A stretch of DNA of 64,000 nucleotides from an uncultured Bacilli bacterium. GTDB taxonomy: Bacteria; Bacillota_I; Bacilli_A; RF39; UBA660. Positions 2,462 through 60,239 of this stretch are shown one piece after another (positions within the stretch are counted from its first letter, which is position 1; every line of letters starts with the position of its first letter). A program made the translations under genes and the position numbers. The notes beneath the pieces were generated by a model. That model worked only from the letters and a program-made list of their open reading frames with translations. It was not told the DNA's origin and did not search any database. The stretch covers positions 12,065 through 76,064 of the forward strand of contig CANQFJ010000002.1 of the NCBI GenBank assembly GCA_947598485.1, given 5' to 3'.

Positions 2462-4405
2462 ATGAAACGTAAATTATTATTACTATCTATAGCATGCTTC
2501 CTTTTTTTTAATTATGTAGATGTTTCGGCGAAAACTATTGTTAAGATTATTGTCCCTTATACAGGTGTAAGACTTAGGGAAGAGCCGTCAACAAGTTCTC
2601 GCTCTATTATAGATCGTATTTCTGAAAATGCGGTATATGAATTAGTCGATGAAGAACTATATAATAAATCAGATTCATGTTCTAAGGGTTGGAACAAAGT
2701 TTATTATAGTGGTCATAATATAGGTTATATCTGTTCTAATTATACAAAGGAATTTTCCCGAGTTGAGTATGATGAAAACGCTGCAGCTAGCTGTGAATCG
2801 GAACTAAAAATTAAGGGTTTTCCTGATAGCTATATCAAAGACTTATGTGACTTAAAAGCAATCCATCCGAATTGGACTTTTACTCCTGATTTTAATAATT
2901 TAGATTGGAATACTTCTATAACCGAACAAGAATATGACCGTAAAGCTTTAATTCAATCATATAATGAGGACACGCAAGGTCTTCTTGATACAGAGTATTT
3001 ATCTTATAATTACTTAACTGATACCTTTATTGTAAAAGAAGGAAGTAATTGGTATAATGCCAGTCATGATGCTATAGCTTACTTTTTAGATCCAAGAAAT
3101 TTCTTTAATGAAAAAGAAATATTTATCTTTCAAAAATTATCATTTGATGAAGTAACCCAAAAACAAGAAACCGTGGAAAGTATTTTAGATGGTACTGATA
3201 TTAAAGAAAAAAGCTCAGTTATTTACGATGCTGGACGTACTTATAATGTAAGTCCTATTTACCTTGCCAGTAGAATTAGACTAGAGACAACAGGAAATTA
3301 TACTAATTATTCTATTAAGGGGACAGCATATGGCAATTATCCTCATATATATAACGCTTATAATATTGGAGCATATACTGGTGCTGCCGATGGTATTAAA
3401 TGGGCTGCCGGTAATATGGGACATGGAACTCCTTGGACAACTCTTGATGCGGCTATTTATGGAGGAGCTAGCTATATCGCAGCTAACTATATAGGCCAAG
3501 GTCAAGATACTACCTATTTTCAAAAGTTTAATACATCTTCTTATTCTAACTATGCCACTCATACTCATCAATATCAAACTAATATTCAAGGCCCTGCAAG
3601 CGAGGCCGTACCTACTTACAATTCTTATGCTATTAATAATTTGTTAGAAACAGCATTTGACTTTGTAATTCCTATTTATGCAAATATGCCAGAAACTGCT
3701 TCTCCAATGCCTACTTATGGTAATCCTAATAATCATTTAAAAAGTATAACTATAAATGATAAAGAATTGCCAGGATTTAAACATGACACTTTCGTTTATG
3801 ACTATTATGTTGCAAAAGGCACTGTCTCTATAAAGATAGATGGGGCTATTATTAACAAGAATACTAAGCTTGAAGGCACTGGAACTATTAATTTGACTGG
3901 TGAAAAAACTCCTGTAGTACTTACTGTAACAGCGCAAAACCAAAAGGTCCAAACATATACTATTAACGTTATAAGGACAGATGGCATAGATATGAGTGTT
4001 GATGATATTTTAAATAGTATGTCAGCTCCCGTAACGGGGGATATGCTAATTTACTCCGCGGGAATAACTATTGATCAATTAAGAAATGAAGTTAATAAAG
4101 TATCTGCTACCGCAAGTGTAGTTGTTGATGCTAAAAATGCTATGACCCTTTCGACCGGTGATACCATAACTATTGCTAATGGAAGCGATAAGAAAACATT
4201 CAATGTTACAATAAAAGGCGATATAAGTGGGGATGGTAATATCGATATTCAAGATTTATTAAAAGTTCAAAAAAGCATTTTAGGATATACCGATTTGGCA
4301 GGACCATACTTTAAAGCCGCTGATACTAATCAAGATGGACTTGTTAATGTTACTGACTTATTAAGAGTTCAAAAGCATATATTAGGATATATAACTATTC
4401 AATAG
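2462..4405 (+). CDS. Secreted cell-wall hydrolase: SH3b domain, LytD-like GH73 N-acetylglucosaminidase, an Ig/cadherin-like beta-sandwich, and a C-terminal type-I dockerin
   Basis: Signal peptide. The SH3b-like region is KTIVKIIVPYTGVRLREEPS...GWNKVYYSGHNIGYICSNY. GH73 motifs are YFLDPRNFF...IFIFQ, IYLASRIRLETTGN (catalytic Glu) and YFQKFN. Two dockerin calcium-binding segments are DISGDGNIDIQDLLKVQKSILG and ADTNQDGLVNVTDLLRVQKHILG. The RBS AGGAAAGGAAGG precedes the ATG. Confidence 0.8.
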   Translation: MKRKLLLLSIACFLFFNYVDVSAKTIVKIIVPYTGVRLREEPSTSSRSIIDRISENAVYELVDEELYNKSDSCSKGWNKVYYSGHNIGYICSNYTKEFSRVEYDENAAASCESELKIKGFPDSYIKDLCDLKAIHPNWTFTPDFNNLDWNTSITEQEYDRKALIQSYNEDTQGLLDTEYLSYNYLTDTFIVKEGSNWYNASHDAIAYFLDPRNFFNEKEIFIFQKLSFDEVTQKQETVESILDGTDIKEKSSVIYDAGRTYNVSPIYLASRIRLETTGNYTNYSIKGTAYGNYPHIYNAYNIGAYTGAADGIKWAAGNMGHGTPWTTLDAAIYGGASYIAANYIGQGQDTTYFQKFNTSSYSNYATHTHQYQTNIQGPASEAVPTYNSYAINNLLETAFDFVIPIYANMPETASPMPTYGNPNNHLKSITINDKELPGFKHDTFVYDYYVAKGTVSIKIDGAIINKNTKLEGTGTINLTGEKTPVVLTVTAQNQKVQTYTINVIRTDGIDMSVDDILNSMSAPVTGDMLIYSAGITIDQLRNEVNKVSATASVVVDAKNAMTLSTGDTITIANGSDKKTFNVTIKGDISGDGNIDIQDLLKVQKSILGYTDLAGPYFKAADTNQDGLVNVTDLLRVQKHILGYITIQ

Positions 4406-8958: not shown

Positions 8959-9444
8959 ATGTTAACTGCAAAGGAAATTGCCGAATATTTTCTTGCCAAA
9001 GATCCTGAAAGAAAATTATTTAATTATAATGTTGTTTCATATAATGGCCGAAAATTTTACGAAGGTAACGCTAGAATAAATAAATATTTATTTTTAGCTC
9101 AAGTAGTACACTTAGCTAAATATGACTCAAAATTGTTTCAAGACGATTTTGCCTTTTATGATAATGGTCCTGTAATTGAAACTATAATGAATTCTTATTC
9201 TAATTTATGCGGTAATGCTACTAATGGAAATATTAATAAAAAAGAAAAAGATTTTTTGGATAAAATATATTTTTCTTTGGAAAATGCTACGTATGAAGAA
9301 CTAATTGATATCACTCATGAAGATCCAGAATGGATCAGATTAAACAAAAATACAAAATATTCTCCTGTTATGAAAATTGAAAATAATATTATGGAATATA
9401 AAAGAAGGTACAAAGGACTAATTGAAGCTTTAAAGCTAGTATAA
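8959..9444 (+). CDS. Panacea-domain (DUF4065, SocA-like) protein
   Basis: NKYLFLAQVVHLAKYDSKLFQDDFAFYDNGPVIETIMNSY matches the core of DUF4065 (KLxKLLYxAQ...LF...FxAW..GPV). It is a 161-aa cytoplasmic protein. Confidence 0.5.
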   Translation: MLTAKEIAEYFLAKDPERKLFNYNVVSYNGRKFYEGNARINKYLFLAQVVHLAKYDSKLFQDDFAFYDNGPVIETIMNSYSNLCGNATNGNINKKEKDFLDKIYFSLENATYEELIDITHEDPEWIRLNKNTKYSPVMKIENNIMEYKRRYKGLIEALKLV

Positions 9445-9926
9445 AAGCCTAAGTACCTTTTTTTAATCTCCTGAAATAAAAAAACCTAGGGCTTCAAAAA
9501 TTTCCTAGGCACTACTTGATACATGAATATCCAATGTTTATAAATTAAATCAATAATTTTTTTATTTATTGTAGCTTAATGTTATCCAAAAAGATAGCAC
9601 TACCCGAGCTTACAAGTACTAATATCGCATTACTTGTTAATCTTCCCAGTTGGGGTTTTGGCAAGACGTTATTACGAAAGCGAGATAGATTATGAAAATA
9701 AATCTTATTACTGTTAGTAATTATAATAATGATTATTTACATTCTTAAAAGAATTGTTGATATCACCAAAAAAATACTAGGTCTTTAAACCATAGCACCA
9801 ACCAAAAGGCAAATGCTATCTTTAGTAGAATAACACTACATTTATAGTATATGATATTTTACTCTAAATTACAATTGACATTTTACAATAGTGGGTAATT
9901 TTTTGGTAAATGTCATTGCCTTATTA

Positions 9927-10020
9927 AAAGTCCTTTGAATTTCGTGAAAAAGTAGTTAAAAAGTGCTTCGAATTTCGTGAAAAAATAGTCAAAAAGTCCT
10001 TTGAATTTCGTGAAATTTAT
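9927..10020 (+). repeat. Three tandem direct repeats of 31-34 bp (core GTCCTTTGAATTTCGTGAAA) upstream of the AAA+ ATPase gene
   Basis: Units begin near 9927, 9962 and 9995. A single copy lies at 8915-8947. Confidence 0.7.
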
Positions 10021-10068
10021 TGATTTCAAGCTAAAAAAATGGTATCCTTATTCATAAGGAGAATACCT

Positions 10069-11379
10069 ATGAAAAGAAAAATTTATAACGATTTATTAAA
10101 ATGGAAAGAAGAAATTCATGCTAAACCATTAATTATGCTTGGTGTAAGACAATGTGGTAAAACTCATATTATTAATGAGTTTTGTCAAAATGAATATCAA
10201 AATTATATTTATGTTAATTTAATTAAAAGAAATGATATTATTGATTTATATGATTCTGTTTTATCTTCGGATGAAAAATTTAATAGATTAAAGGTATTAT
10301 TAGACTTTGATATTGAAAAGGATAATACTATTTTATTTATTGATGAAATTCAAGAATCAGAAAAAATAATTACTGAACTTAAGTATTTTTGGGAGGATCA
10401 TCCAAAATTACGTGTTATTTGCGCTGGTTCGCTTCTCGGTGTTAGGCTAAAAAGATTTAAATCTTCTTTTCCTGTTGGAAAAATCACTTTTTCTTATTTA
10501 TATCCTATGGATTTTGAAGAATTTCTTTGGGCAAATAACGAAGAACTTTTAATTGACGTTATTAAAGATGGTTATGATAATAATAGAGCTTTAGGCAAAG
10601 CACTACATAATAAGGCTTTAAAATATTACTATATGTATTTAATGTCTGGGGGAATGCCTGAAAGCGTTAAAAAAATTATTGCTACTAAAGGAGATTATAT
10701 TAAATACGATAATAGTGTTTTAAATGACATATTATCTTCTTATTTTGATGATATGAGAAGATATGTTACTAATGATGCCGAATCTTTAAAAGTACAAAGA
10801 ATTTATAATTCTTTACCATCGCAATTAAATAATTTATCTAGTAAATTCCAATATTCTTTAGTTGATAAAGATGCTCGGTCTAGAGATTATGCAACAGCTT
10901 TAGATTGGCTTGAAGCTAGTAATTTAGTTTTAAGGGCTAAAATGGCAAAAAGGGCGGAAATTCCTTTGGAAGGTTTTATAGATGTAGATACATTCAAACT
11001 TTTCTTAAGTGATGTTGGAATATTAAACACTTTATTAAAAATATCTCCTATGGATATTATTAAAGATAATATTTCTTTGTATAAAGGAATTATAACCGAA
11101 AATTTTGTTGCTAATCAGTTAGTATGTAATAATTTTTCTTTATATTATTGGAAAAATGATGCCACAGCGGAAATTGATTTTCTTTTATATACTAGAGATG
11201 GTATTATTCCTTTAGAAGTTAAAGCCAGAGAAAATACGCAATCTAAAAGTTTAAATATTTATAGGGAAATATATCATCCTAAATATTCAATAAGATTAAG
11301 TACTAAAGATTTCGCTTATGATCCTAAAAAACAAATTAAATCTGTTCCTTTATATGCTGTTTTTCTTATTAAACCATAA
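10069..11379 (+). CDS. AAA+ ATPase of the COG1373 family (AAA_14 domain plus DUF4143); the DUF4143 C-terminus carries a PD-(D/E)XK-like motif
   Basis: The Walker A motif is GVRQCGKTH and the Walker B motif is ILFIDEIQ. The C-terminal motif EIDFLLY...IPLEVKA fits a D...E-x-K nuclease signature. The RBS AAGGAG lies 7 nt before the ATG at 10069; the ATG at 10039 given in the ORF track is unlikely to be the real start. Confidence 0.7.
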   Translation: MKRKIYNDLLKWKEEIHAKPLIMLGVRQCGKTHIINEFCQNEYQNYIYVNLIKRNDIIDLYDSVLSSDEKFNRLKVLLDFDIEKDNTILFIDEIQESEKIITELKYFWEDHPKLRVICAGSLLGVRLKRFKSSFPVGKITFSYLYPMDFEEFLWANNEELLIDVIKDGYDNNRALGKALHNKALKYYYMYLMSGGMPESVKKIIATKGDYIKYDNSVLNDILSSYFDDMRRYVTNDAESLKVQRIYNSLPSQLNNLSSKFQYSLVDKDARSRDYATALDWLEASNLVLRAKMAKRAEIPLEGFIDVDTFKLFLSDVGILNTLLKISPMDIIKDNISLYKGIITENFVANQLVCNNFSLYYWKNDATAEIDFLLYTRDGIIPLEVKARENTQSKSLNIYREIYHPKYSIRLSTKDFAYDPKKQIKSVPLYAVFLIKP

Positions 11380-34078: not shown

Positions 34079-35023
34079 ATGGTAAAGGTAAGTTTAATAG
34101 TTCCTGTTTATAAGACAGAAAAATATTTAAATAAATGTATAGATTCTATATTAAATCAAACACTAAAAGATATTGAAGTTATAATAATAAATGATGGATC
34201 ACCCGATAATTCTGAAAAGGTAATAAAAAAATATAATGATTCTAGAATCAAATATTTTAAGCAAGAAAACCAAGGAATAGGTAAAACAAGAAATTTAGGC
34301 ATAGAAAAAAGCCAAGGTGAGTATATTGCCTTTGTAGATAGTGATGATTATTTAGACTTACATTTTTGTGAGTATTTATATAATAAGTGCTATAATGATA
34401 ATTGTGATGTAGCATTATGTGATTATTATGAAGAAAGAGATAGTATTACTAGAGTTAATTTTAAAATCTTTAAAGATACTAATTTAGAAAAGACTCCTAG
34501 TTTAATAAATAATATTAATTTAGGACCTTGTAATAAACTATATAAACGAAGCTTATTAATAGAAAATAATATTCTTTTTGAAGAAAAGTTAAAATATGAA
34601 GATGCTCCCTTTGTTGTTAAGGCTTTACTTAATGCTAAAAAAATAGGTAAATTAGATGAAGCTTTAACATATTATGTTATTCATGAAAAAAGTCAAACAA
34701 CTATTAGAGATGCAAGAATATTTGATATTATTGAAATAGTTAATATTATAGATAATGAAATGAGCAAATTTGCAAATATGCATGAAGCAAAAGTTAATTT
34801 AATTACTATGATATTACTTGATTATACTATTCAACAAAGATATGTTGAAGATAAAAAAATGCGCAATAAGTTTATCGATGAAGCATTTAGTTACTTAGAT
34901 AAAATGGATAAAAATTGGCCAAAATGTTCTTATTTAAAAAATATCCCTTTTAGCAAAAGAATAGTGAAAAGTAATAAGCTTTTAACCAAAATTTATTGTA
35001 GTTGCTGTAATTCTAAACAATAG
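34079..35023 (+). CDS. GT2 family glycosyltransferase
   Basis: VSLIVPVYKTEKYLNKCIDSILNQT plus FVDSDD. Confidence 0.8.
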   Translation: MVKVSLIVPVYKTEKYLNKCIDSILNQTLKDIEVIIINDGSPDNSEKVIKKYNDSRIKYFKQENQGIGKTRNLGIEKSQGEYIAFVDSDDYLDLHFCEYLYNKCYNDNCDVALCDYYEERDSITRVNFKIFKDTNLEKTPSLINNINLGPCNKLYKRSLLIENNILFEEKLKYEDAPFVVKALLNAKKIGKLDEALTYYVIHEKSQTTIRDARIFDIIEIVNIIDNEMSKFANMHEAKVNLITMILLDYTIQQRYVEDKKMRNKFIDEAFSYLDKMDKNWPKCSYLKNIPFSKRIVKSNKLLTKIYCSCCNSKQ

Positions 35024-35162
35024 AATTATAGCGATTTTTTTATTATGTTATCAATTATATAGCTTAGAAAGATGGAAAGAAGTTGCTATTCAGACATTTT
35101 TTGGCAACTAAATAAATCTTTTTATTTTAAAAGATATAAGATATAATTAAATAGAAGTTATT

Positions 35163-37619
35163 ATGAAGAAGATTAATTATTTATACACATTTCTATCTAT
35201 ACTACCTTTAATAGATTTAATAACTAGTATAACAAGTAGATATTTTCCTAATTTTATTTCTATTGGAGCTATCTTAAAGGGATTAATTTTATTAATAGGA
35301 GTTTTTTATATCTTCTTTTATAGTGCTAGTAAATATAAGAAGATGTCCATAATATATATTACTATTTTGGTTTTTTATGTTCTGGGATATTTTATTTTTA
35401 AAAGTGATTTAATAGATAAAAGTTATTTTTTTAGCGAACTAAATTATTTGATTAAACTTTCTTTCTTTCCAACCATGTTTGTTGTCTTTCTAAATTTATT
35501 TGATGATTTTGGCTTCGACATTAAGAAAATAGAAAAAGTAATGATTATAAATATTATATTTTATATTTTGTTTATAATTGGTCCTACAATATTGAATTTT
35601 AACTTTTCTTCTTACTCAAGCAATGCGTATTTTGGATCTGTTGGGTGGTTTTATTCCGCTAATGAGATATCTAGCATTTTATTATTTTTATTTCCATTTA
35701 TATATAAATTCATGTCTAAAGATAAATTGATATTGATAATATTATTTCTTTTAGCTTTATATATGATAAGCTTTATTGGCACTAAAGTTACTTTGTTTGG
35801 GATTATCATCATGAGCATAATATTAATGCTTATGGTTTTATTTAAAAGCAAAAATAATTTAAATCGAATAATAGCTATAATTTTAACCTTTATAACTATA
35901 GGTTTCATGCATAATAATTACGCATTTTTAAATATGAAAGCATCAATAGGCTATGAAAATAATCAAAATGCAGTTATTGATGATAACCCAGATATAGTTG
36001 ATAAGGACTTGGAAGAAGAATTAAATGATATCAAAGAAGAAAAGGAAAGCTATAAGAAATGGCAAAAGTTTAGTTTATCATTATTAAGCGATAGAGATAT
36101 ATATGCCATTTATACGTATAGACTTTATCGTAAAAATTTTGAACCGAGCTATTTTCTATTTGGCATGGGAATCTCAAATACATCAAGAATTAATGATAAG
36201 CAAGTAGCCAAACTTATTGAAATAGATTTTTTAGATATTTTCTTCCATTTTGGCTTGTTAGCTTTACTTATCACTATTTATCCCTTTATTTATACAATAA
36301 TATGCATTGTTAAATCAAAAACATTTAATCATAAAATATTACTATTTAGTTTAACGGTCCTTTTAATGATGGGAGTTTCATCTTTAGCAGGACATGTTCT
36401 TTTAGCTCCTGCTGTTAGTATTTATTTATGCCTTTATTTAATTTGTATTATAAATGAGACACATAGCTTTAAAAGAAAAGATATTAAAAAAAATAAAGTG
36501 ACGATTTTAGCTATGCATTTAGGTTATGGTGGCGTAGAAAATGCCATTTGTAACATTGCTAGTAATTTAGTAGATAATTATGATGTAGAAATTATTTCTT
36601 TGTATAAAAATAAAGAAAAAATTCCCTTTAAATTGGCTAAAAAAGTTAAAGTTACGTATCTATTAAATACAATATCTAATCGTCAAGAATTTAAAAATGC
36701 TTTAAAGGATTTTGATTTAACAAACCTTTTAAAAGAGGGATTTAAAGCTTTAAAGATAATAAGTAAAAAAGACAATTTAATTAAAAAAGCGATAATTAAC
36801 TGTGATGCTAAAATTATTATCTCTACAAGAATTAAATATAGTAATTTATTAAATGAATACGGAAATGACTTGGCTATAAAAATTCATCAAGAACATACAT
36901 ATAGTGTTGGTGATAAGTACATAAATCATTTAAATAAATTAGATAATATAAATTATATAATGCCTGTGAGCAATGTATTATATAACGAATATAAAAATAA
37001 AGTTACTATACCTTTAAAATACATTCCTCTTGCATTAAATTATTATCCTAGTGATGATGAAATATCTAAATTAAATAATTATAATTTGATTGCTATTGGA
37101 AGATTAGAACCTGAAAAGGGGTTTGATGACTTGCTGGATGTTGTATATCATTTGACTAAAGAGAATAAAAAAATAAAATTAAACATATTTGGTGATGGAT
37201 CACTAAGAGAAAGCTTACAAGATAAAATTAATCATCTTAAACTTGAAAATAATATTACACTATGGGGCTTTAAAGAATACGATTTTATAAAAAAGTACTT
37301 AATTGATTCAGCATTATATGTTATGACATCTTATGAAGAATCATTTGGCTTAGTTGTGCTTGAGGCTATGAGCTATGGCGTACCTTGTGTTACTTATGCA
37401 AGTGCTAAAGGGGTAAAATCTATAGTAAATAATAAAAATGGCTTTATAATTAATAAAAGGGATAATAAAAAAATGGCTAAAGTTATCCTTGATTATTTTA
37501 ATTTAAAATCTGCGGATAAAAGAAAATACGGTACTGAAGCAAGAAAAATAAGCTATGAGTATAGTAATGAAGCAATCAAAGAGCAGTGGTTAGATTTTTT
37601 GGATAGTATTAATGAATAA
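35163..37619 (+). CDS. Fusion protein: an N-terminal Wzy/O-antigen-ligase-like polytopic membrane domain and a C-terminal GT4 (glycosyl transferase group 1) domain
   Basis: Residues 1-430 contain about ten TM helices with a large loop. Residues 440-818 form a GT4 domain with FGLVVLEAMSYGVPCV. Confidence 0.55.
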   Translation: MKKINYLYTFLSILPLIDLITSITSRYFPNFISIGAILKGLILLIGVFYIFFYSASKYKKMSIIYITILVFYVLGYFIFKSDLIDKSYFFSELNYLIKLSFFPTMFVVFLNLFDDFGFDIKKIEKVMIINIIFYILFIIGPTILNFNFSSYSSNAYFGSVGWFYSANEISSILLFLFPFIYKFMSKDKLILIILFLLALYMISFIGTKVTLFGIIIMSIILMLMVLFKSKNNLNRIIAIILTFITIGFMHNNYAFLNMKASIGYENNQNAVIDDNPDIVDKDLEEELNDIKEEKESYKKWQKFSLSLLSDRDIYAIYTYRLYRKNFEPSYFLFGMGISNTSRINDKQVAKLIEIDFLDIFFHFGLLALLITIYPFIYTIICIVKSKTFNHKILLFSLTVLLMMGVSSLAGHVLLAPAVSIYLCLYLICIINETHSFKRKDIKKNKVTILAMHLGYGGVENAICNIASNLVDNYDVEIISLYKNKEKIPFKLAKKVKVTYLLNTISNRQEFKNALKDFDLTNLLKEGFKALKIISKKDNLIKKAIINCDAKIIISTRIKYSNLLNEYGNDLAIKIHQEHTYSVGDKYINHLNKLDNINYIMPVSNVLYNEYKNKVTIPLKYIPLALNYYPSDDEISKLNNYNLIAIGRLEPEKGFDDLLDVVYHLTKENKKIKLNIFGDGSLRESLQDKINHLKLENNITLWGFKEYDFIKKYLIDSALYVMTSYEESFGLVVLEAMSYGVPCVTYASAKGVKSIVNNKNGFIINKRDNKKMAKVILDYFNLKSADKRKYGTEARKISYEYSNEAIKEQWLDFLDSINE

Positions 37620-37783
37620 CGAAAAAATACTTTCCTTTTTTGACTTTAATCATGTCATATTATAAAATTAAAGAGATGAGATATTTCTATTTATAAATTT
37701 TAGATGAGAGAATAAACAAATTTTTTAAGGAAAAGAAGTGTTTGAATACGGTTTAAGCTAAAGGAATTGTTGTAGGTGGTAAA

Positions 37784-39760
37784 GTGAAGATTATTAAAAA
37801 GATATTAAAGCATTTAAAGGAGTATGGATTATTTGATACAGTTAAGTGGTTATATAATTGCTTATTATTTAAAATAAGACACAGAAAAGTTAAAAGTATT
37901 GATTTTGATTCACTTAATGTTGATAGCCAATATCAAAAATATTTAATACCTAAAACAGGAATTAATATATTTATGGTTGCTAACGTACCTTATTATGATA
38001 TTGGTGGTGGTCAACGCTGCTCACAACTTGCCAAAACATTTAATAAAATGGGTTTTAACGTTATTTATTTATACGCTTATAAATCTTCTGAAAGTATGGT
38101 CTTTAATATGACCATGCCTATGAATGCCCATATATTTATTGACGACTATATAATTTCAAAAATCGAAAATTACGCTAAAGAGGGAGATTTATTTATATTT
38201 GAATCTCCATCAGAAAAATTTTCTAAAGTATTAGATTTCGCTATAGCAAAAAAGGGTAAGATAGTGTATGAAAATATTGATAATTGGGAAACATCACTTG
38301 GCTCTGATGTATATGACGAAAAGACGCTAAAAAAATTACTAGAGAATGCGGATTTATTAGTTGGAACTGCTAAACCACTTGTTGAACAATTAGAAAAATA
38401 TTTAAAAAGATATAAAATTAATGGCAAAAAAACAATTTATTTACCAAATGCCGTTGATGATGAACTATTTTGTGGCCTAAAAAAGTTGGAAAAACCACAA
38501 GACTTAGTAATAGATAAAAAGACCTTTTTATATTATGGATCATTATGGGGAGAATGGTTTGACTGGGATCTTCTGATTGATTTAGCATTAAAACATCCTA
38601 GATACTCTTTTAATATAATAGGAGATTATAATAATGTATATAATCAGTACAAAAATTGCCCTTATAATATTCATTTTCTTGGCTTGAAAAAGCAGTATGA
38701 GTTGCCGGCTTATTTAAAGTATGTTGACTATGCTATGATTCCATTTAAAACCGGTGAAATTGGTGATTATGTTTCACCATTAAAGATATTTGAATATATA
38801 TCTATGTATACAAAAGTACTTTGTACAGAACTACCTGATGTAATAGGATATCCCAATGTTTATATTGGCAATACTGCTGAAGAATGGGATAAAATTATTG
38901 AAAATGATTATAAAATTGATATAGAAGGTGCAGATAATTTTGTTGAAGATAATACATGGTCAAATAGGGTTGATAAAATACTTAATGAGATATATCCAGA
39001 AATTAATAACTCATTTTTAAAAAATAATTTATCTATAATCGTATTAAATTATAATAATAAGAACATTATTTTTAAATCATTAAATACTCTTTTAAAGTTT
39101 AATGATATTTATAATTATGAAATCATTGTTGTTGATAATGGAAGTACTGATGGCTCATATGAAATATTAAAAGAAAAATATACAGATAAAATTAAGTTAA
39201 TAAAAAACAAAAAGAATGGTTGCGCCAGTGGAAGAAATTTAGGTGCAACACTTGCCACTAAAAAGTACTTGATGTTTTTGGATAGTGATCAATGGATTAC
39301 TACTAAATATTGGCTTATGCCTTATGAAACTATATTGAAAAATGTGGATAATGTGGGTTTGATTGGCTGGGCTGCTGGTTTCTTTAATCGTGATAATGCT
39401 GCGTATCATGTTGTAGATAGTTTTCCATATCGGTATATGCCTTCAAACTCTTTATGTAGGTATGATATAGGCTATCTAGGATCAGGTGGAATGATTGTTT
39501 TAAAAGAGGATTTTGATAAGGTTGGAGGCTTTGATTTGGCATACGATCCAACATGTTATGAAGATACAGATTTTTCAGTTGCAATTAGAAATGCTGGGAA
39601 AGAACTTTACTATTGTCCTTATTTAGGCATCATTCATTTGCCACATCAAACTACAAATAGTGGAAGTAAAGAACATACTAAATTAATAAATGAAAAGCAA
39701 AAATATTTTACGGAAAAATGGCTTAAGAAAAATAAAGAAGTATTTAAATATAAAAAATAA
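37784..39760 (+). CDS. Two-domain glycosyltransferase: an N-terminal GT4-like domain and a C-terminal GT2 domain
   Basis: It starts at GTG, with GGTGG upstream. The N-terminal segment YYGSLWGEWFDWDLL is paralogous to the gene at 41473. The GT2 part has LSIIVLNYNN...FLDSDQ. Confidence 0.6.
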   Translation: MKIIKKILKHLKEYGLFDTVKWLYNCLLFKIRHRKVKSIDFDSLNVDSQYQKYLIPKTGINIFMVANVPYYDIGGGQRCSQLAKTFNKMGFNVIYLYAYKSSESMVFNMTMPMNAHIFIDDYIISKIENYAKEGDLFIFESPSEKFSKVLDFAIAKKGKIVYENIDNWETSLGSDVYDEKTLKKLLENADLLVGTAKPLVEQLEKYLKRYKINGKKTIYLPNAVDDELFCGLKKLEKPQDLVIDKKTFLYYGSLWGEWFDWDLLIDLALKHPRYSFNIIGDYNNVYNQYKNCPYNIHFLGLKKQYELPAYLKYVDYAMIPFKTGEIGDYVSPLKIFEYISMYTKVLCTELPDVIGYPNVYIGNTAEEWDKIIENDYKIDIEGADNFVEDNTWSNRVDKILNEIYPEINNSFLKNNLSIIVLNYNNKNIIFKSLNTLLKFNDIYNYEIIVVDNGSTDGSYEILKEKYTDKIKLIKNKKNGCASGRNLGATLATKKYLMFLDSDQWITTKYWLMPYETILKNVDNVGLIGWAAGFFNRDNAAYHVVDSFPYRYMPSNSLCRYDIGYLGSGGMIVLKEDFDKVGGFDLAYDPTCYEDTDFSVAIRNAGKELYYCPYLGIIHLPHQTTNSGSKEHTKLINEKQKYFTEKWLKKNKEVFKYKK

Positions 39761-39838
39761 TGAATTTAGCTCTTTAAAACTTGTGTGGAGATGTACATGC
39801 AAGCGAAAGAATAGTTGACTCTATTATAAAGACAAACA

Positions 39839-39865
39839 AATTTGGCCGACAGTGTCGGCCAAATT
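39839..39865. repeat. Perfect GC-rich palindrome AATTTGGCCGACA-G-TGTCGGCCAAATT (13-bp arms); likely an operator or recombination site
   Basis: It stands out as GC-rich in AT-rich DNA. A 12/13 match recurs at 40259-40284 inside the DUF1016 coding sequence, and half-sites are arrayed at 40921-41232. Confidence 0.7.
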
Positions 39866-39991
39866 AAGTTGATATATATTTAAAATTATAATTATCCGTG
39901 TCAAAATAATTAAAAATATATCCTATATGACATAATATTACAATTTTTTCACAGTTATTATGGCATACTATCCCATTAACAGGGTGGTATC

Positions 39992-40913
39992 ATGGATGAA
40001 CAAAAATATTTTCAACAAGTAGTAAGCTTAATTGAAGAAAAGGAAATAAACAGAAGAACTAGAGAATTACTAAACAATTATAATACTCTATATACTTACT
40101 GGCAAATAGGAAGGTGTATAGTGGAAGCTTCTGGAGCACGAGCTACTTATCGTAGTGACTTAATAAACAAATGGGGAACTGAATTATCTTTACAATATGG
40201 AACTGATTATAAGGTACAAAAATTGAGAAGAATGCGACAATTTTATTTAACTTTTCCGATTTGGGCGACAGTGTCACCCAAATTAAAATGGTCTCACATC
40301 TCGGAGATTATGACTATACAAAACGAAAATGCAAGAAACTATTATATCAACCAAATAATTTTAAATAATCTTTCTGTTAGGGAATTAAGATGCTTAATTA
40401 AAAGTAATGCTTATGAGCGTTTAAGTAATAAGTCAAAAAATAACATTGATTACAGACAAAGATAAACCTAATTTAAACTTAGATGATATGTTAAAAGATC
40501 CCATTATAATAAAAACTAATCAAAAAATAGATAAATTAAATGAGATGGCTATTCATAGATTTTTAATTAGCATGGTAGAAACGAAATTCTTAGAACTTGG
40601 TACAGGTTTTGCTTTAATTGGTCATGAGTATAAGATTATTGTTGGTAATAAAATATTTAGAATAGATCTATTGTTCTTTAATATTGAATTAAATAGATAT
40701 ATAGTTGTTGAAGTAAAAAATAGAGAATTTAGTCCTAAAGATATTGGGCAAATCGACTTTTATGTTAATTATATCGATAAGAATATAAAGAGGAATAACC
40801 ATAAAGATACATTAGGAATTATAGTTGTAAAAAAGAAAAATCAATTGGTTATTGAGTATGTTACAAATAAAATATATATAACAACTTTTAAAATTGAAGA
40901 AACTAATCTATAA
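39992..40913 (+). pseudogene. Frameshifted YhcG/DUF1016-family PD-(D/E)XK nuclease gene; the two ORFs overlap at an A6 tract near 40435-40440
   Basis: The first ORF (39992-40465) carries the DUF1016 N-terminal motifs YWQIGRCIVE and LRRMRQFYLTFP. The second ORF (40446-40913) carries the nuclease core GFALIGHEYKI...IDLLFFNIELNRYIVVEVKNREF. Both match one protein family and are disrupted by a +/-1 shift. Confidence 0.65.
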
Positions 40914-40920
40914 GATATAA

Positions 40921-41232
40921 GCAAAACGCGCCACACTTTTTCAAAAAAAGCGAACAGAAATGGCCGACACTTTCTTCAATTTTTTTTGCTATAATTCAGA
41001 AAAGCCCGAAATTATGGGCCAAAAATGTCATTAAAAATGGCCGACACTAACTCCCAAAAAGGCGAACAAAAACGCGCCACACTTTTTCAAAAAAGCGAAC
41101 AGAAATGGTCGACACTTTACTTGATTTTTTGCTGCAATTCAAGAAAAAGCCCGAAATTACTGGCCAAGATGGTCACCGAAAATGGTCGACACTAACGCTA
41201 AAAAAAGCGAACAAAAATGGGTGACACTTGAA
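40921..41232. repeat. Two tandem GC-rich repeat units of about 145 bp each, each carrying about four half-sites of the form GCGAACA-AAA-(T/C)GG(C/T)CGACAC
   Basis: Unit 1 spans about 40921-41071 and unit 2 about 41072-41217, with roughly 90% identity. The half-sites match one arm of the palindrome at 39839. Confidence 0.7.
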
Positions 41233-41472
41233 TAAAAATGTAGTAGTTGATTAAATTATTAAAAGCAGCGTTTTTGCTAACCATATTTCTCGTTGCATGA
41301 GAATTATTTTTTTATTATAATAATTATAAGTAAGAAATAGGATAAATATTAAAATCAATTTTAGATTTATTACAATTTATATCCTATCGAGTCTTTTATT
41401 TATCGTAAATGGAAGATATAATTATCCAATTTATTTTACTATTATTTTTTTTACTTAGGAATGGAGGGTTTA

Positions 41473-42762
41473 ATGGCAAAAAATAGTTTTAATCATAAAG
41501 TGTCTAAATTAGCAAATGTTTATAAAAAGTATGGCTTTATGGGATTTTGCAAGAAATTATATGCTCATGTTAAAGCTAATTATCTAGATAAAATAAGTTT
41601 TAAAGTATTTTTTCAAAAAGGTAAATACCGTAAGATAATAAATGATATCTTAATAAATACTAAATATGATCGTATAATATTATGGCGTAGTAGTTTTGGC
41701 TATAATGTTCCTTTATATCAAAGACCTCAACATATTGCTAGTAATTTAGCTAAAGAAAATTGTTTAGTCTTTTATGAAGTTACTACTATGACTGATAAAG
41801 TTAAAACTATTAAGAAAATTAATGAACATATCTATCTTACTAATTTTAATAATATCTTACTAAATAAACTATTAATGAGTGAACTTAGTAAAATAAATAA
41901 ACCTAAATATATTCAACTTTATTCTACAGATTGGAAATTAACTATTAATGATATCGAAAACTATATTAATAATAATTATAGATTTATATATGAGTATATT
42001 GATCATTTATCACTAGAACTCGCAGGTACTAAATCTTTACCGCAAAATATAATTGATAAATATGAATATGCAATGAGCCATGAAGATGTATTTGTAGTTG
42101 TAACAGCTTCCGATTTGGAAGAAGATGTTCTATCTAAAAGAGGTAAGAAAAATGTTATCTTTTCCTCCAATGGGGTAGATTATAAATACTTTGAAAGTTT
42201 TGATGAAGACTTTGAATTTGATGAAGAATTTAAAAATATTTTAGCTAAAAAGAAACCAATAGTTTGCTACTATGGAGCTTTAGCTAAATGGTTTGATTAT
42301 GATTTAATTAAGGAAATAGCCAAGACCGATAAATATAGTATCGTATTATTTGGCATTAAATATGATGAATCTTTTGATAACAATTTAACAGGTAACGAAA
42401 AGAATATTTATTTCTTAGGACCAAGAGATTATAAGGTACTTAAAAATTATGCTCGTAAATGTGATATTTTAACAATTCCCTTTCTTTTAAATGATATAAC
42501 TAAAGCTACAAGCCCCGTTAAGATATTTGAATATATGGCTTTACATAAACCGATAGTTATAACTGATTTAAAAGAATGTAGACAATATAAGAGTGTCATG
42601 ATAGGGCATAGTCATAAAGAATTTATAGAGTTATTAGACAAAGCTTTAGAAAAGAAAGATGATAAGAAATATATAAGTCTTCTTGATAAAGAAGCAAGAG
42701 AAAATGACTGGGCCTATAAAGCTCAAGCCATTATAGATGTTATTCAGAAAAGTGAAAAATAA
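41473..42762 (+). CDS. Glycosyltransferase (GT4-like C-terminal domain); the last gene of the polysaccharide locus
   Basis: The C-terminal segment KKPIVCYYGALAKWFDYDLIKEIAK is paralogous to the N-terminal domain of the gene at 37784. GGAGGG precedes the ATG at 41473; the ATG at 41461 is an alternative start. Confidence 0.55.
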   Translation: MAKNSFNHKVSKLANVYKKYGFMGFCKKLYAHVKANYLDKISFKVFFQKGKYRKIINDILINTKYDRIILWRSSFGYNVPLYQRPQHIASNLAKENCLVFYEVTTMTDKVKTIKKINEHIYLTNFNNILLNKLLMSELSKINKPKYIQLYSTDWKLTINDIENYINNNYRFIYEYIDHLSLELAGTKSLPQNIIDKYEYAMSHEDVFVVVTASDLEEDVLSKRGKKNVIFSSNGVDYKYFESFDEDFEFDEEFKNILAKKKPIVCYYGALAKWFDYDLIKEIAKTDKYSIVLFGIKYDESFDNNLTGNEKNIYFLGPRDYKVLKNYARKCDILTIPFLLNDITKATSPVKIFEYMALHKPIVITDLKECRQYKSVMIGHSHKEFIELLDKALEKKDDKKYISLLDKEARENDWAYKAQAIIDVIQKSEK

Positions 42763-60117: not shown

Positions 60118-60147
60118 TATAAGAATTAATAATTATAATTAGCAAAA

Positions 60148-60239
60148 TGCCAAATTAGGAAGTAAAAGTGCGCCAAATTAAGAACTAAAAACACGCCAAA
60201 TTAGGAACTGAAAACTTGCCAAATTAGGAAATTATTAAC
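60148..60239 (+). promoter_or_regulatory. Four tandem 22-23-bp direct repeats (core GCCAAATTAGGAA) upstream of the C39-like peptidase gene; a candidate array of response-regulator binding sites
   Basis: The repeats are TGCCAAATTAGGAAGTAAAAG, GCGCCAAATTAAGAACTAAAAAC, ACGCCAAATTAGGAACTGAAAAC and TTGCCAAATTAGGAAATTATTAAC. A 22-bp period is two helical turns. Confidence 0.55.

Follow-up and report, generated by a model that had tools for sequence, protein, structure and literature searches.

This report concerns a cassette of about 1.5 kb within a 64,000-nucleotide stretch of DNA from an uncultured Bacilli bacterium (GenBank assembly GCA_947598485.1, contig CANQFJ010000002.1, positions 12,065 to 76,064 of the forward strand), the whole of which is referred to below as the window. 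The cassette carries a nuclease gene of the DUF1016 (YhcG) family together with a set of GC-rich repeats, and our central finding is that all of these repeats belong to a palindrome family that is specific to DUF1016 genes. A first reading of this DNA, made before any database was searched (the sequence-only reading), had grouped the palindromes and half-sites around and inside the gene into one family, and this grouping holds, since all of them are tied to the DUF1016 gene. The coordinates of the features are collected in Table 1.

As that reading had recognized, the gene is frameshifted. Its DUF1016_N and YhcG_C domains are found on two overlapping open reading frames (ORFs), and the domain order of the family, PF17761 and then PF06250, is present in the window with the domains divided between the two frames. 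The YhcG_C ORF also gives weaker matches to NucS_C and HSDR_N_2. The split state recurs in four independent metagenome contigs, which have the same two ORFs and are 99.97-100% identical to the window across the cassette. An intact homologue, P0001, is 87% identical to the window protein and is matched by the PADLOC models for PDC-S02 (E 2e-68), the defence candidate under which PADLOC enters DUF1016/YhcG. Many genes of the family are pseudogenes, and the copy in the window is probably decaying as well.

Upstream of the gene is a perfect palindrome, AATTTGGCCGACA-G-TGTCGGCCAAATT, with arms of 13 bp on either side of a single central base (13+1+13), exactly where the sequence-only reading had placed it. 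The chance expectation for this palindrome in the window, allowing up to three mismatches, is 0. As single-stranded DNA it folds with -14.2 kcal/mol (z -6.9). Three metagenome contigs have their first base exactly at 39839, as would be expected of a repeat or a variant boundary, and L005, L008 and L009, three close relatives, have an identical free-standing (solo) palindrome at the corresponding place before the gene. Positions 39839-39871 match a 140-nt DUF1016 pseudogene fragment in locus L038 at 33 of 33 positions, and match the genic site of L011, which encodes IWPTLSAKLS, at 32 of 33. Because of these identities, the upstream palindrome is taken as shown to be the last remnant of the coding palindrome of another DUF1016 gene and not an independent operator. 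L038 itself presents an intermediate state, in which a 140-nt gene relic centred on its own palindrome lies just upstream of an intact gene.

A second copy lies inside the coding sequence. The sequence-only reading had listed it as a 12/13 match at 40259-40284; a related copy is indeed there, although it is better described as a 28-nt stretch (40259-40286) that is 89% identical to the upstream palindrome. Its arms (40259-40270 and 40272-40283, about a centre at 40271) form 11 pairs out of 12, the exception being a C.A mismatch, and this one-mismatch form is shared with the intact homologue that is 87% identical. The comparisons presented below show that the internal palindrome is the resident gene's own copy of a conserved feature of the gene family, held at a fixed codon position, and not a stray insertion. 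A scan of the 64-kb window revealed no further palindromes of the DUF1016 kind.

Downstream of the gene, two tandem units of about 145 bp carrying about eight directly oriented half-sites had been described. The units and the common strand of the half-sites stand; the number of half-sites is seven. Tandem Repeats Finder reports 2.0 copies of a 145-bp period at 40923-41217 (84% matches, score 414) with a 33-nt sub-period. Each half-site consists of an A-run, a variable GC core and ACA-C-T, and all seven are on the + strand. Five of them have the form TGG(C/T/G)(C/T)GACAC, with cores that begin at 40961, 41038, 41106, 41183 and 41218, and the other two (40927 and 41073) read CGCGCCACAC; the spacing is 33-35 or 77 bp, and GCGAACA precedes five of the seven. 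With up to two mismatches the motif is matched 13 times compared with an expectation of 5.7, and this number was reached in none of 100 shuffles. The GC content is 0.36-0.41 at 40900-41299 as against 0.175-0.26 in the flanking windows, in agreement with the earlier remark that these elements are more GC-rich than their surroundings. Identity between a half-site and the full palindrome runs through the central C and the next T and then ends, and the cores TGGCCG, TGGTCG, TGGGTG and CGCGCC overlap the arms of the cassette's own palindromes. The array is a locally duplicated set of palindromes broken off one base beyond the centre. Its minimal form, with two copies, is found in L005 and L009, and in the window and in L008 the array is duplicated or expanded. 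Each 145-bp unit of the window also contains a small inverted repeat centred on AATT (GCCC-GAAATTAT-GGGC, at 41000-41025 and 41145-41170), which has counterparts in L008.

Table 1. Features of the DUF1016 cassette, in coordinates of the window.
Feature	Position	Strand	Basis or comment
ORF 1 of the frameshifted DUF1016 gene (DUF1016_N, helical domain)	39992..40465	+	Pfam PF17761, E 6e-28
ORF 2 of the DUF1016 gene (YhcG_C, PD-(D/E)XK nuclease domain)	40446..40913	+	Pfam PF06250, E 1e-34
A-run with +1 frameshift (A6 here, A5 in intact relatives)	40435..40440	+	Comparison with L005 and L008
Solo palindrome AATT-TGGCCGACA-G-TGTCGGCCA-AATT, free-standing and perfect	39839..39865	.	Relic of a second, lost DUF1016 gene
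Coding palindrome of the resident gene (12-nt arms), encoding I-W-A-T-V-S-P-K	40259..40283	.	Homologous codon position palindromic in 81 distinct genes
Array of two tandem 145-bp units and one extra repeat, with seven directly oriented half-palindromes	40923..41232	+	Tandem Repeats Finder, motif matching
Upstream region of the cassette (presumed promoter and 5' UTR)	39866..39991	+	Conserved in L005, L008 and L009 except for an indel
Right tail of the cassette, with degenerate terminator-like hairpin AGCAGCGTTTTTGCT	41233..41339	+	BLAST and MAFFT alignments

A protein search returned thousands of homologues, and DNA was fetched for 79 loci, nearly all of them from metagenome-assembled genomes (MAGs) of uncultured gut Bacilli whose hosts include rabbit and chicken. 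Several of these MAGs are represented by four or five DUF1016 loci, and tandem copies are present at several loci. In every fetched copy the palindrome occupies the same codons, which are bounded by those for a conserved F-P on one side and L-x-W on the other (F-P-x9-W). The sequence-only reading had allowed that the motifs might occur only here and be absent from relatives, which would have counted against it; they are instead conserved across the DUF1016 family. The 81 distinct genic sites from gut Bacilli yield the consensus AATT-N7-CA-[G/C]-TG-N7'-AATT. The arms are perfect at 13 of 13 positions in 43 of these sites and have one mismatch in another 16. The C-A-[G/C]-T-G centre and the AATT ends are near-invariant, and positions +-3 to +-9 have an entropy of 1.2-1.8 bits per side. 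The arms pair in 95.3% of the cells of this alignment compared with 65.7% in column shuffles, none of which reached the observed value in 500 trials. The covariation score is 0.657 versus 0.14, sliding the partner by one to three columns gives 28-40%, and 280 cells are changed on both sides.

This symmetry exists at the level of DNA, and not of RNA or protein. The mismatches that sense-strand RNA would tolerate (G.T and T.G, 18 cases) are matched in number by A.C and C.A (17 cases), so that there is no strand bias, and the central base of the genic palindrome is G in 43 sites and C in 33. Copies outside the recognized gene motif, of which there are 51, are as symmetric as the genic ones (27 perfect; centre G in 22 and C in 20). 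In the fixed peptide I-W-x-T-[VL]-S-x-K-L, most of the paired positions fall at free synonymous sites according to a codon-register analysis, and the palindrome is therefore no consequence of the peptide. The equality of the two kinds of mismatch and the lack of strand preference in the centre also speak against the notion that these are RNA-level elements, that is terminators, attenuators or mRNA-stabilizing stem-loops in or beside a toxic nuclease gene. Such a role would suit the solos that are found frequently just past stop codons or upstream of promoters, some of which, in relatives, take the form of a bidirectional intrinsic terminator (A-run, GC stem, T-run), and the window solo is itself terminator-like, on the minus strand only. 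The T-run is missing, however, from the genic copies and from those in high-GC genomes, the stem has a one-base centre, the half-sites taken singly show no significant fold, and an Rfam scan of 38500-42500 (E<=1) gave no match. We consider an RNA-level function to be quite improbable. The downstream array was also considered as a small or otherwise structured RNA and was rejected (RNA folding z -2.4, no convincing structure).

Comparison of the arms with their flanks gives an impression of the rate at which the arms change. When the flanks (360 nt) are at least 90% identical, the arms are identical in 13 of 13 gene pairs; when flank identity is 80-90%, the arms differ at 3.2 of 7 positions, with saturation at 4.5. 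The arms thus change about as fast as unconstrained sequence and yet stay complementary. Since rapid change is combined with preserved pairing, a succession of independent compensatory mutations is unlikely, and copying of one arm from the other fits the observations. The same 13 pairs give no support to the idea of silent-cassette switching with the solo arrays as donors.

The tandem loci provided a further comparison. In L063, four palindromes at 4268, 5231, 6194 and 7157 are separated by exactly 963 nt and their arms all differ, and L015 is listed as a similar case; the spacing in L063 is consistent with four tandem DUF1016 genes, and two of the four palindromes were confirmed as genic in the first scan. 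The suggestion that the palindrome-to-palindrome unit of such arrays is a transposon was rejected on account of the differing arms of neighbouring palindromes in L063.

The palindrome extends well beyond the gut Bacilli. A palindrome or quasi-palindrome was found at the homologous position in 15 of 15 other lineages examined. In E. coli K-12, yhcG contains three tandem in-frame palindromic modules, at ~3368129-3368236 as converted from the coordinates of the locus; palindromes or near-palindromes are also present in E. coli plasmid pECO-109b, Clostridium saccharoperbutylacetonicum, Vescimonas, Legionella, Burkholderia, Granulicella, Leptolyngbya, Rhodococcus, Runella and a Klebsiella plasmid, and Francisella, Rathayibacter and Rickettsia have degenerate versions. 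The 'FVQQ.VAQ' type of peptide in Vescimonas, Leptolyngbya and Burkholderia is encoded by such a palindrome, for example TTGTGCAGCAGCCTGCTGCACAA. The exact 23-mer of the window's upstream palindrome was also recovered from six metagenome contigs with a GC content of 53-63%. Four of these have it in a DUF1016 gene, at the codon position described above, and drift in codon usage would not have preserved it in organisms of this composition. The literature that was searched treats DUF1016/YhcG only as a predicted nuclease found near restriction-modification systems, BREX and mobile elements, and contains no earlier description of a palindrome in these genes, so that the family-wide palindrome is apparently undescribed so far. 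It is a clear natural case of DNA-level symmetry that shapes the consensus motif of a protein family. It also carries a warning for annotation, in that GC-rich palindromes and half-site arrays beside DUF1016 genes are relics of the family and not independent regulatory sites.

What the encoded protein might do with such a sequence is suggested by its two domains. The DUF1016_N ORF gives a match to HTH_ParB with E 0.026, which is below the Pfam gathering score (15 bits against a cutoff of 22.6). Matches to HTH_ParB with E 0.03-0.05 were obtained in three proteins, together with a match to Spo0J; all are weak and below threshold but they are repeated. The similarity spans residues ~97-140, and the alignment places the palindrome-encoded segment immediately behind the putative recognition helix. 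An AlphaFold2 model (mean pLDDT 78) has these residues in a mostly non-helical stretch, 88-99, between helices 75-87 and 100-106. For the nuclease domain, Foldseek returned the folds of NucS/EndoMS, Bax1, Card1/Can2, Cas4 and XisH, and the YhcG nuclease domain has been placed in an archaeal Holliday-junction-resolvase/YraN-like group (PMC1189080).

In the protein alignment the 7-8 residues encoded by the palindrome are the sole hypervariable patch of the conserved N-domain. Given their place beside the putative recognition helix, their mostly non-helical character in the model, the faster evolution of the arms than of the flanks and the status of the family as a defence candidate, one may propose that the palindrome serves to diversify a protein loop: hairpin-associated mutation with symmetric copying would alter several residues at once and so tune the specificity of a defence nuclease. 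The solos outside any ORF are equally symmetric, however, no near-identical genes with swapped arms were found, which leaves cassette switching unsupported, and the recurrence of the same arms in very distant taxa is the opposite of diversification. The contact between loop and DNA is also purely hypothetical, and on balance we judge this explanation unlikely.

Solo palindromes with the same arms as the nearby gene are found in several lineages, at 30 nt past the stop codon in Clostridium and at 135 nt and 47 nt before the start in Rhodococcus and Runella, respectively. In E. coli K-12 (L087, NC_000913.3) there are solos 16 nt after gltD (~3360632-3360656) and 16 nt after yhcG (~3368970-3368994); these coordinates are approximate, having been converted from those of the locus. 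The gltF, yhcA and yhcF genes separate the first of these solos from yhcG, and in the other E. coli strains examined gltD is followed directly by yhcG and then by nanQ. In strain SK1144, which lacks yhcG, a single perfect palindrome remains in the interval from gltD to nanQ. The median number of matching places per E. coli genome is three, and in those cases that were examined they all belong to the yhcG locus. Among strains, CTGCAGAC/CTCCAGAC variants are altered in both arms, otherwise identical palindromes have G or C at the centre, and the gene contains one, two or three in-frame 39-nt modules. Solos may also be clustered beside the gene in gut Bacilli, with ~13 in ~1 kb of L074 (by reading) and nine in L053 (by scan), and several of these retain recognizable flanking fragments of the gene. 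A strict match between the arms of solos and those of the genic copies was considered for the Bacilli and rejected, as there is only a weak excess of near matches.

Rearrangement breakpoints fall at the edges or the centre of the palindromes, as at the deletion junction in cassette A of L008. Two single loci deserve separate mention. In E. coli 214-4 (L095, 1290-1314), yhcG is truncated exactly at the end of the third module and is followed by a small transposase gene. At ~1300-1330 of L053 there is a hybrid palindrome with left arm GTGAACACA and right arm GCGTACACA, both types of which exist as full palindromes elsewhere, and this suggests an exchange between different palindromes at their shared centre.

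These observations may be brought together by supposing that the DUF1016 nuclease has the palindromes as its cis sites, able to form hairpins or cruciforms, that copying from arm to arm maintains their symmetry and that they serve as breakpoints for rearrangement. We would put the chances of this interpretation at about even. The arms would be kept perfect by hairpin or template-switch conversion and not by independent compensatory mutations. The sites would be recognized by the encoded protein, with its N-domain resembling a ParB-type helix-turn-helix (HTH) and its nuclease domain resembling Holliday-junction resolvases and NucS, and breakage and repair at their centres or edges would give rise to half-sites, relic copies, tandem modules, deletions and relocations. 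The benefit to the cell or to the gene might be autoregulation, self-propagation or defence. Cleavage of cruciforms and breakage at palindrome centres are known (PMC7999016, PMC9180970; for SbcCD, PMC4787754 and PMC3315005), and the cruciform of a perfect palindrome with a single central base is a suitable substrate; the resolvase-like placement of the nuclease domain (PMC1189080) and the resemblance of the half-sites to products of a central break add to the likeness. In contrast to those systems, spontaneous extrusion would be demanding for arms as short as 12-13 bp, and cleavage by DUF1016 proteins is hypothetical.

Several further points weigh against this interpretation. The link between protein and DNA is likewise putative. 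A conserved putative recognition helix cannot read variable arms, and any binding must therefore use structure or those portions that are conserved, the ends and the centre. In the fold search the matches were confined to the nuclease domain, and the ParB-HTH similarity, as noted, is below the Pfam threshold. Most Bacilli solos do not carry the arms of the neighbouring gene (a mean of 3.6 differences versus 4.2 for random pairs). The exact 91-mer has G at the centre in 2815 E. coli genomes and C in two; the centre is thus stable within the species, so that the process must be slow at the scale of populations, and a fast phase-variable flip of the centre was rejected on the same counts. In the window the gene is frameshifted and its palindrome is imperfect, and the system may therefore be inactive there. 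The differing positions of the cassette in relatives may reflect turnover and rearrangement of glycosyltransferase genes instead of movement of the cassette. Finally, arm-to-arm copying by itself could keep a functionless palindrome perfect.

The last of these points leads to the main rival, according to which the palindrome is a functionless, self-perpetuating mutational structure. An inverted repeat of ancestral origin would occupy a tolerant protein loop, template switching in the course of replication would preserve its perfection, and the solos and half-sites would be debris of gene decay. Template switching is documented to homogenize the arms of inverted repeats and to invert spacers (PMC8604942, PMC8794818). 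As mutagenesis at quasi-palindromes (PMC8604942, PMC8794818, PMC7202029), it explains why changes appear symmetrically in both arms, why the arms are perfect and how the central base comes to be inverted; the E. coli variants in both arms and the G and C centres described above are examples. The near-neutral divergence of arms that remain perfect, the perfection of solos in decayed fragments and the large number of pseudogenes in the family are all accommodated, and no match between the arms of solos and genes is needed in Bacilli. Template switching is nevertheless a mutational mechanism and not a system, and it leaves unexplained why the palindrome is retained at one position in DUF1016. That same codon position is held over nine phyla or classes whose GC content ranges between 26% and 67%, genomes of 61% GC retain the exact 23-mer as well as the AT-rich outer arms, the CA-S-TG centre and the ends of the palindrome are conserved, and solos with the same arms are found near the gene in several distant lineages. 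Moreover, short perfect palindromes are normally prone to deletion, and long retention therefore suggests selection. With these points in mind we regard the functionless structure as rather doubtful.

The interpretation as cis sites may be carried one step further. The DUF1016/YhcG gene might be a self-referential element of a kind not recognized before, which carries in frame, and leaves beside itself, the hairpin- or cruciform-forming palindrome that its product, with likeness to the ParB HTH and to Holliday-junction resolvases, binds and cuts. Cutting followed by hairpin-templated repair would then keep the arms perfect while they drift, would duplicate or delete modules and gene copies and would move the cassette. 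We hold this version to be doubtful as it stands. If it is true, the nuclease and its palindrome would differ as a system from REP/RAYT, from homing endonucleases and from ParABS, and they would reveal on what substrate a candidate defence gene acts that is widespread and present in E. coli K-12. DUF1016/YhcG is a large nuclease family, found in restriction-modification and defence islands, on plasmids, in integrative elements and in E. coli K-12. The palindrome points to its likely DNA substrate or cis site and so offers a first concrete clue, through which the function of the family becomes testable in E. coli.

It is instructive to compare the arrangement with known systems. The closest parallel on the side of DNA binding is ParB-parS, in that a palindromic site lies in or near the gene of a protein with weak likeness to the ParB HTH, and the palindrome-encoded segment of DUF1016 aligns to the ParB stretch between 'LP' and 'LS.GHAR'. 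A parS site of B. subtilis Spo0J reportedly lies inside the spo0J coding sequence (Lin and Grossman 1998), an attribution that a full-text search did not confirm. The DUF1016 protein differs in having neither the N-terminal CTPase domain of ParB nor a ParA partner, and in its C-terminal PD-(D/E)XK nuclease domain; its site is 27 bp long with hypervariable arms and is confined to its own locus, whereas parS is a conserved 16-bp sequence. No ParBc domain and no ParA were found in the window, where the similarity to HTH_ParB is below threshold, and the sites follow AATT-N7-CASTG-N7-AATT instead of the 16-bp parS consensus TGTTNCACGTGAAACA. The REP/RAYT (REPIN) systems also join a palindrome family to one nuclease-type gene, which the palindromes flank, and conserve structure above sequence. 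RAYT is a relative of HUH/Y1 transposases, however, and REPs are dispersed in tens to hundreds of copies and are not in frame within the RAYT ORF, whereas the DUF1016 elements have hypervariable arms and stay at the gene; genome-wide dispersal was not seen, there being none elsewhere in the 64-kb window and a median of three places in E. coli.

As an in-frame inverted repeat retained among homologues, the DUF1016 palindrome belongs to the class of coding palindromes. Perfect in-frame inverted repeats in functional ORFs, which maintain protein sequence and DNA symmetry together, are known from mitochondrial genes of Nematomorpha (PMC6649704) and from the palindromic elements of Rickettsia (RPEs), which are inserted in frame within genes (Ogata 2000, 2002, via PMC4316617). 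The mitochondrial repeats are long and lineage-specific, and the RPEs are mobile and have inserted, within a single genus, into many genes that are unrelated to one another. DUF1016, in contrast, has one short palindrome at one homologous position in one protein family that spans many phyla, and this palindrome has extragenic relatives.

The sequence-only reading had offered, more specifically, that the ensemble might be iterons, a parS-like partition site or recombination targets, and the iterons or parS of a small replicon that has integrated, or inverted transposon ends, must be weighed accordingly. With their direct orientation, their spacing of 33-35 and 77 bp and an inverted version ahead of the gene, the half-sites recall the layout of iteron plasmids, and 5'-TG...CA-3' inverted repeats can be drawn around the gene if the half-sites are taken together with the upstream palindrome's right arm; the weak ParB-HTH similarity would also fit. 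No gene for Rep, ParA, full ParB, transposase or integrase was found in the cassette or its neighbours, however, and no relative among plasmids, phages or viral contigs: a BLAST search with the 145-bp array gave nothing in plasmids and one 39-nt match at chance level in phages, and a scan of viral contigs with protein alignment gave no relatives. Because there is neither Rep, ParA, full ParB nor a plasmid or phage match, the repeats are most unlikely to be iterons or a replicon partition site, and of the parS-like proposal there survives the partial support from the weak but repeated HTH matches. The DUF1016 nuclease is the sole gene between the repeats, with no Rep gene adjoining them, and although there are seven half-sites on one strand and an upstream palindrome, the same type of palindrome lies inside the ORF in all homologues. 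As to transposon ends, the absence of a transposase had been stated correctly, no target-site duplication was seen, adjacent palindromes in tandem gene arrays such as L063 do not have matching arms, and copies are restricted to DUF1016 loci. This family of explanations is highly improbable. A CRISPR array had rightly been excluded, as the 145- and 33-bp units are only 73-84% alike, the whole unit is repeated and no Rfam match was found. A shufflon-like inversion switch is not indicated either: there is no recombinase in the window cassette, the genic sites are on the gene strand in 87 of 87 cases and the E. coli centre is near-fixed.

The cassette may be delimited by its homology to the cassettes of relatives, which extends over ~39825-41339; at the right end, homology to L005, L008B and L009 stops near 41339. 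BLAST aligns 39905-40972 of the window with L005, L008 and L009 at 87-90%. The hairpin in the right tail has a clearer stem followed by a T-run in relatives, and a consensus promoter scan remained below the shuffle expectation and was uninformative. The neighbours of the window cassette are glycosyltransferases, gltX and cysS, and the gene order of the cell-surface glycopolymer locus (34079-42761) differs among the window, L005, L008 and L009. A search of relatives, which the sequence-only reading had recommended for the palindrome and the 145-bp unit, found the cassette in differing contexts, with three different left neighbours among close relatives. In L009 it adjoins the 3' side of an O-antigen-ligase/glycosyltransferase gene. 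In L005 and L008 it follows a homologue of the window gene 41461-42762, with a 50-nt fragment of the end of a ligase gene before the cassette, and L008 has a second, internally deleted cassette at the position that it occupies in the window. The glycosyltransferase gene 37784-39760 is present in the window only, and another glycosyltransferase gene in L008 has a DUF1016 cassette on both sides. The unit therefore looks cassette-like and associated with rearrangement. Of the proposal that a small mobile cassette was inserted into a glycopolymer locus, the cassette-like unit is retained, and its own mobility is inseparable in these comparisons from turnover of the glycosyltransferase genes. The palindromes mark local rearrangement hotspots, which in the lineage of the window lie amid the shuffled glycosyltransferase genes of a cell-surface polymer locus.

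A few minor observations were made on related or similar elements. At 6520-6600 of L104, a metagenome contig of 62% GC, TTTGGCCGACACTGTCGGCCAAA and ATTCCGCAGACGCTGTCTGCGGAAT, both palindromes of the family, lie side by side, and no DUF1016 homologue was detected within ~6 kb on either side of the pair. Directly past the DUF1016 stop codon in L006 (4930-5090) and L007 (4930-5100) is a conserved AAC-rich element of ~150 nt, which translates as ...NANVF.V...GNLNNNNV...GVRPI and resembles the template/variable repeat of a diversity-generating retroelement target (the end of a C-type-lectin fold). In the window itself, 9926-10015 contains 2.7 copies of a 33-nt unit (AAAAGTCCTTTGAATTTCGTGAAAAA...) with a layout of A-run, core and T-run like that of the half-site array. 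It follows a 161-aa ORF (8959-9444) and precedes a 446-aa ORF (10039-11379), which may encode a SocA/Panacea-type protein and an AAA-ATPase, respectively. Lastly, an intergenic segment at 60144-60230, with no DUF1016 gene nearby, holds four 23-nt direct repeats of the form AAAA-NNN-GCCAAATTAGGAACT, or AATTTGGC-N-TTTT on the minus strand, and these resemble an arm of the DUF1016 palindrome with its flank.

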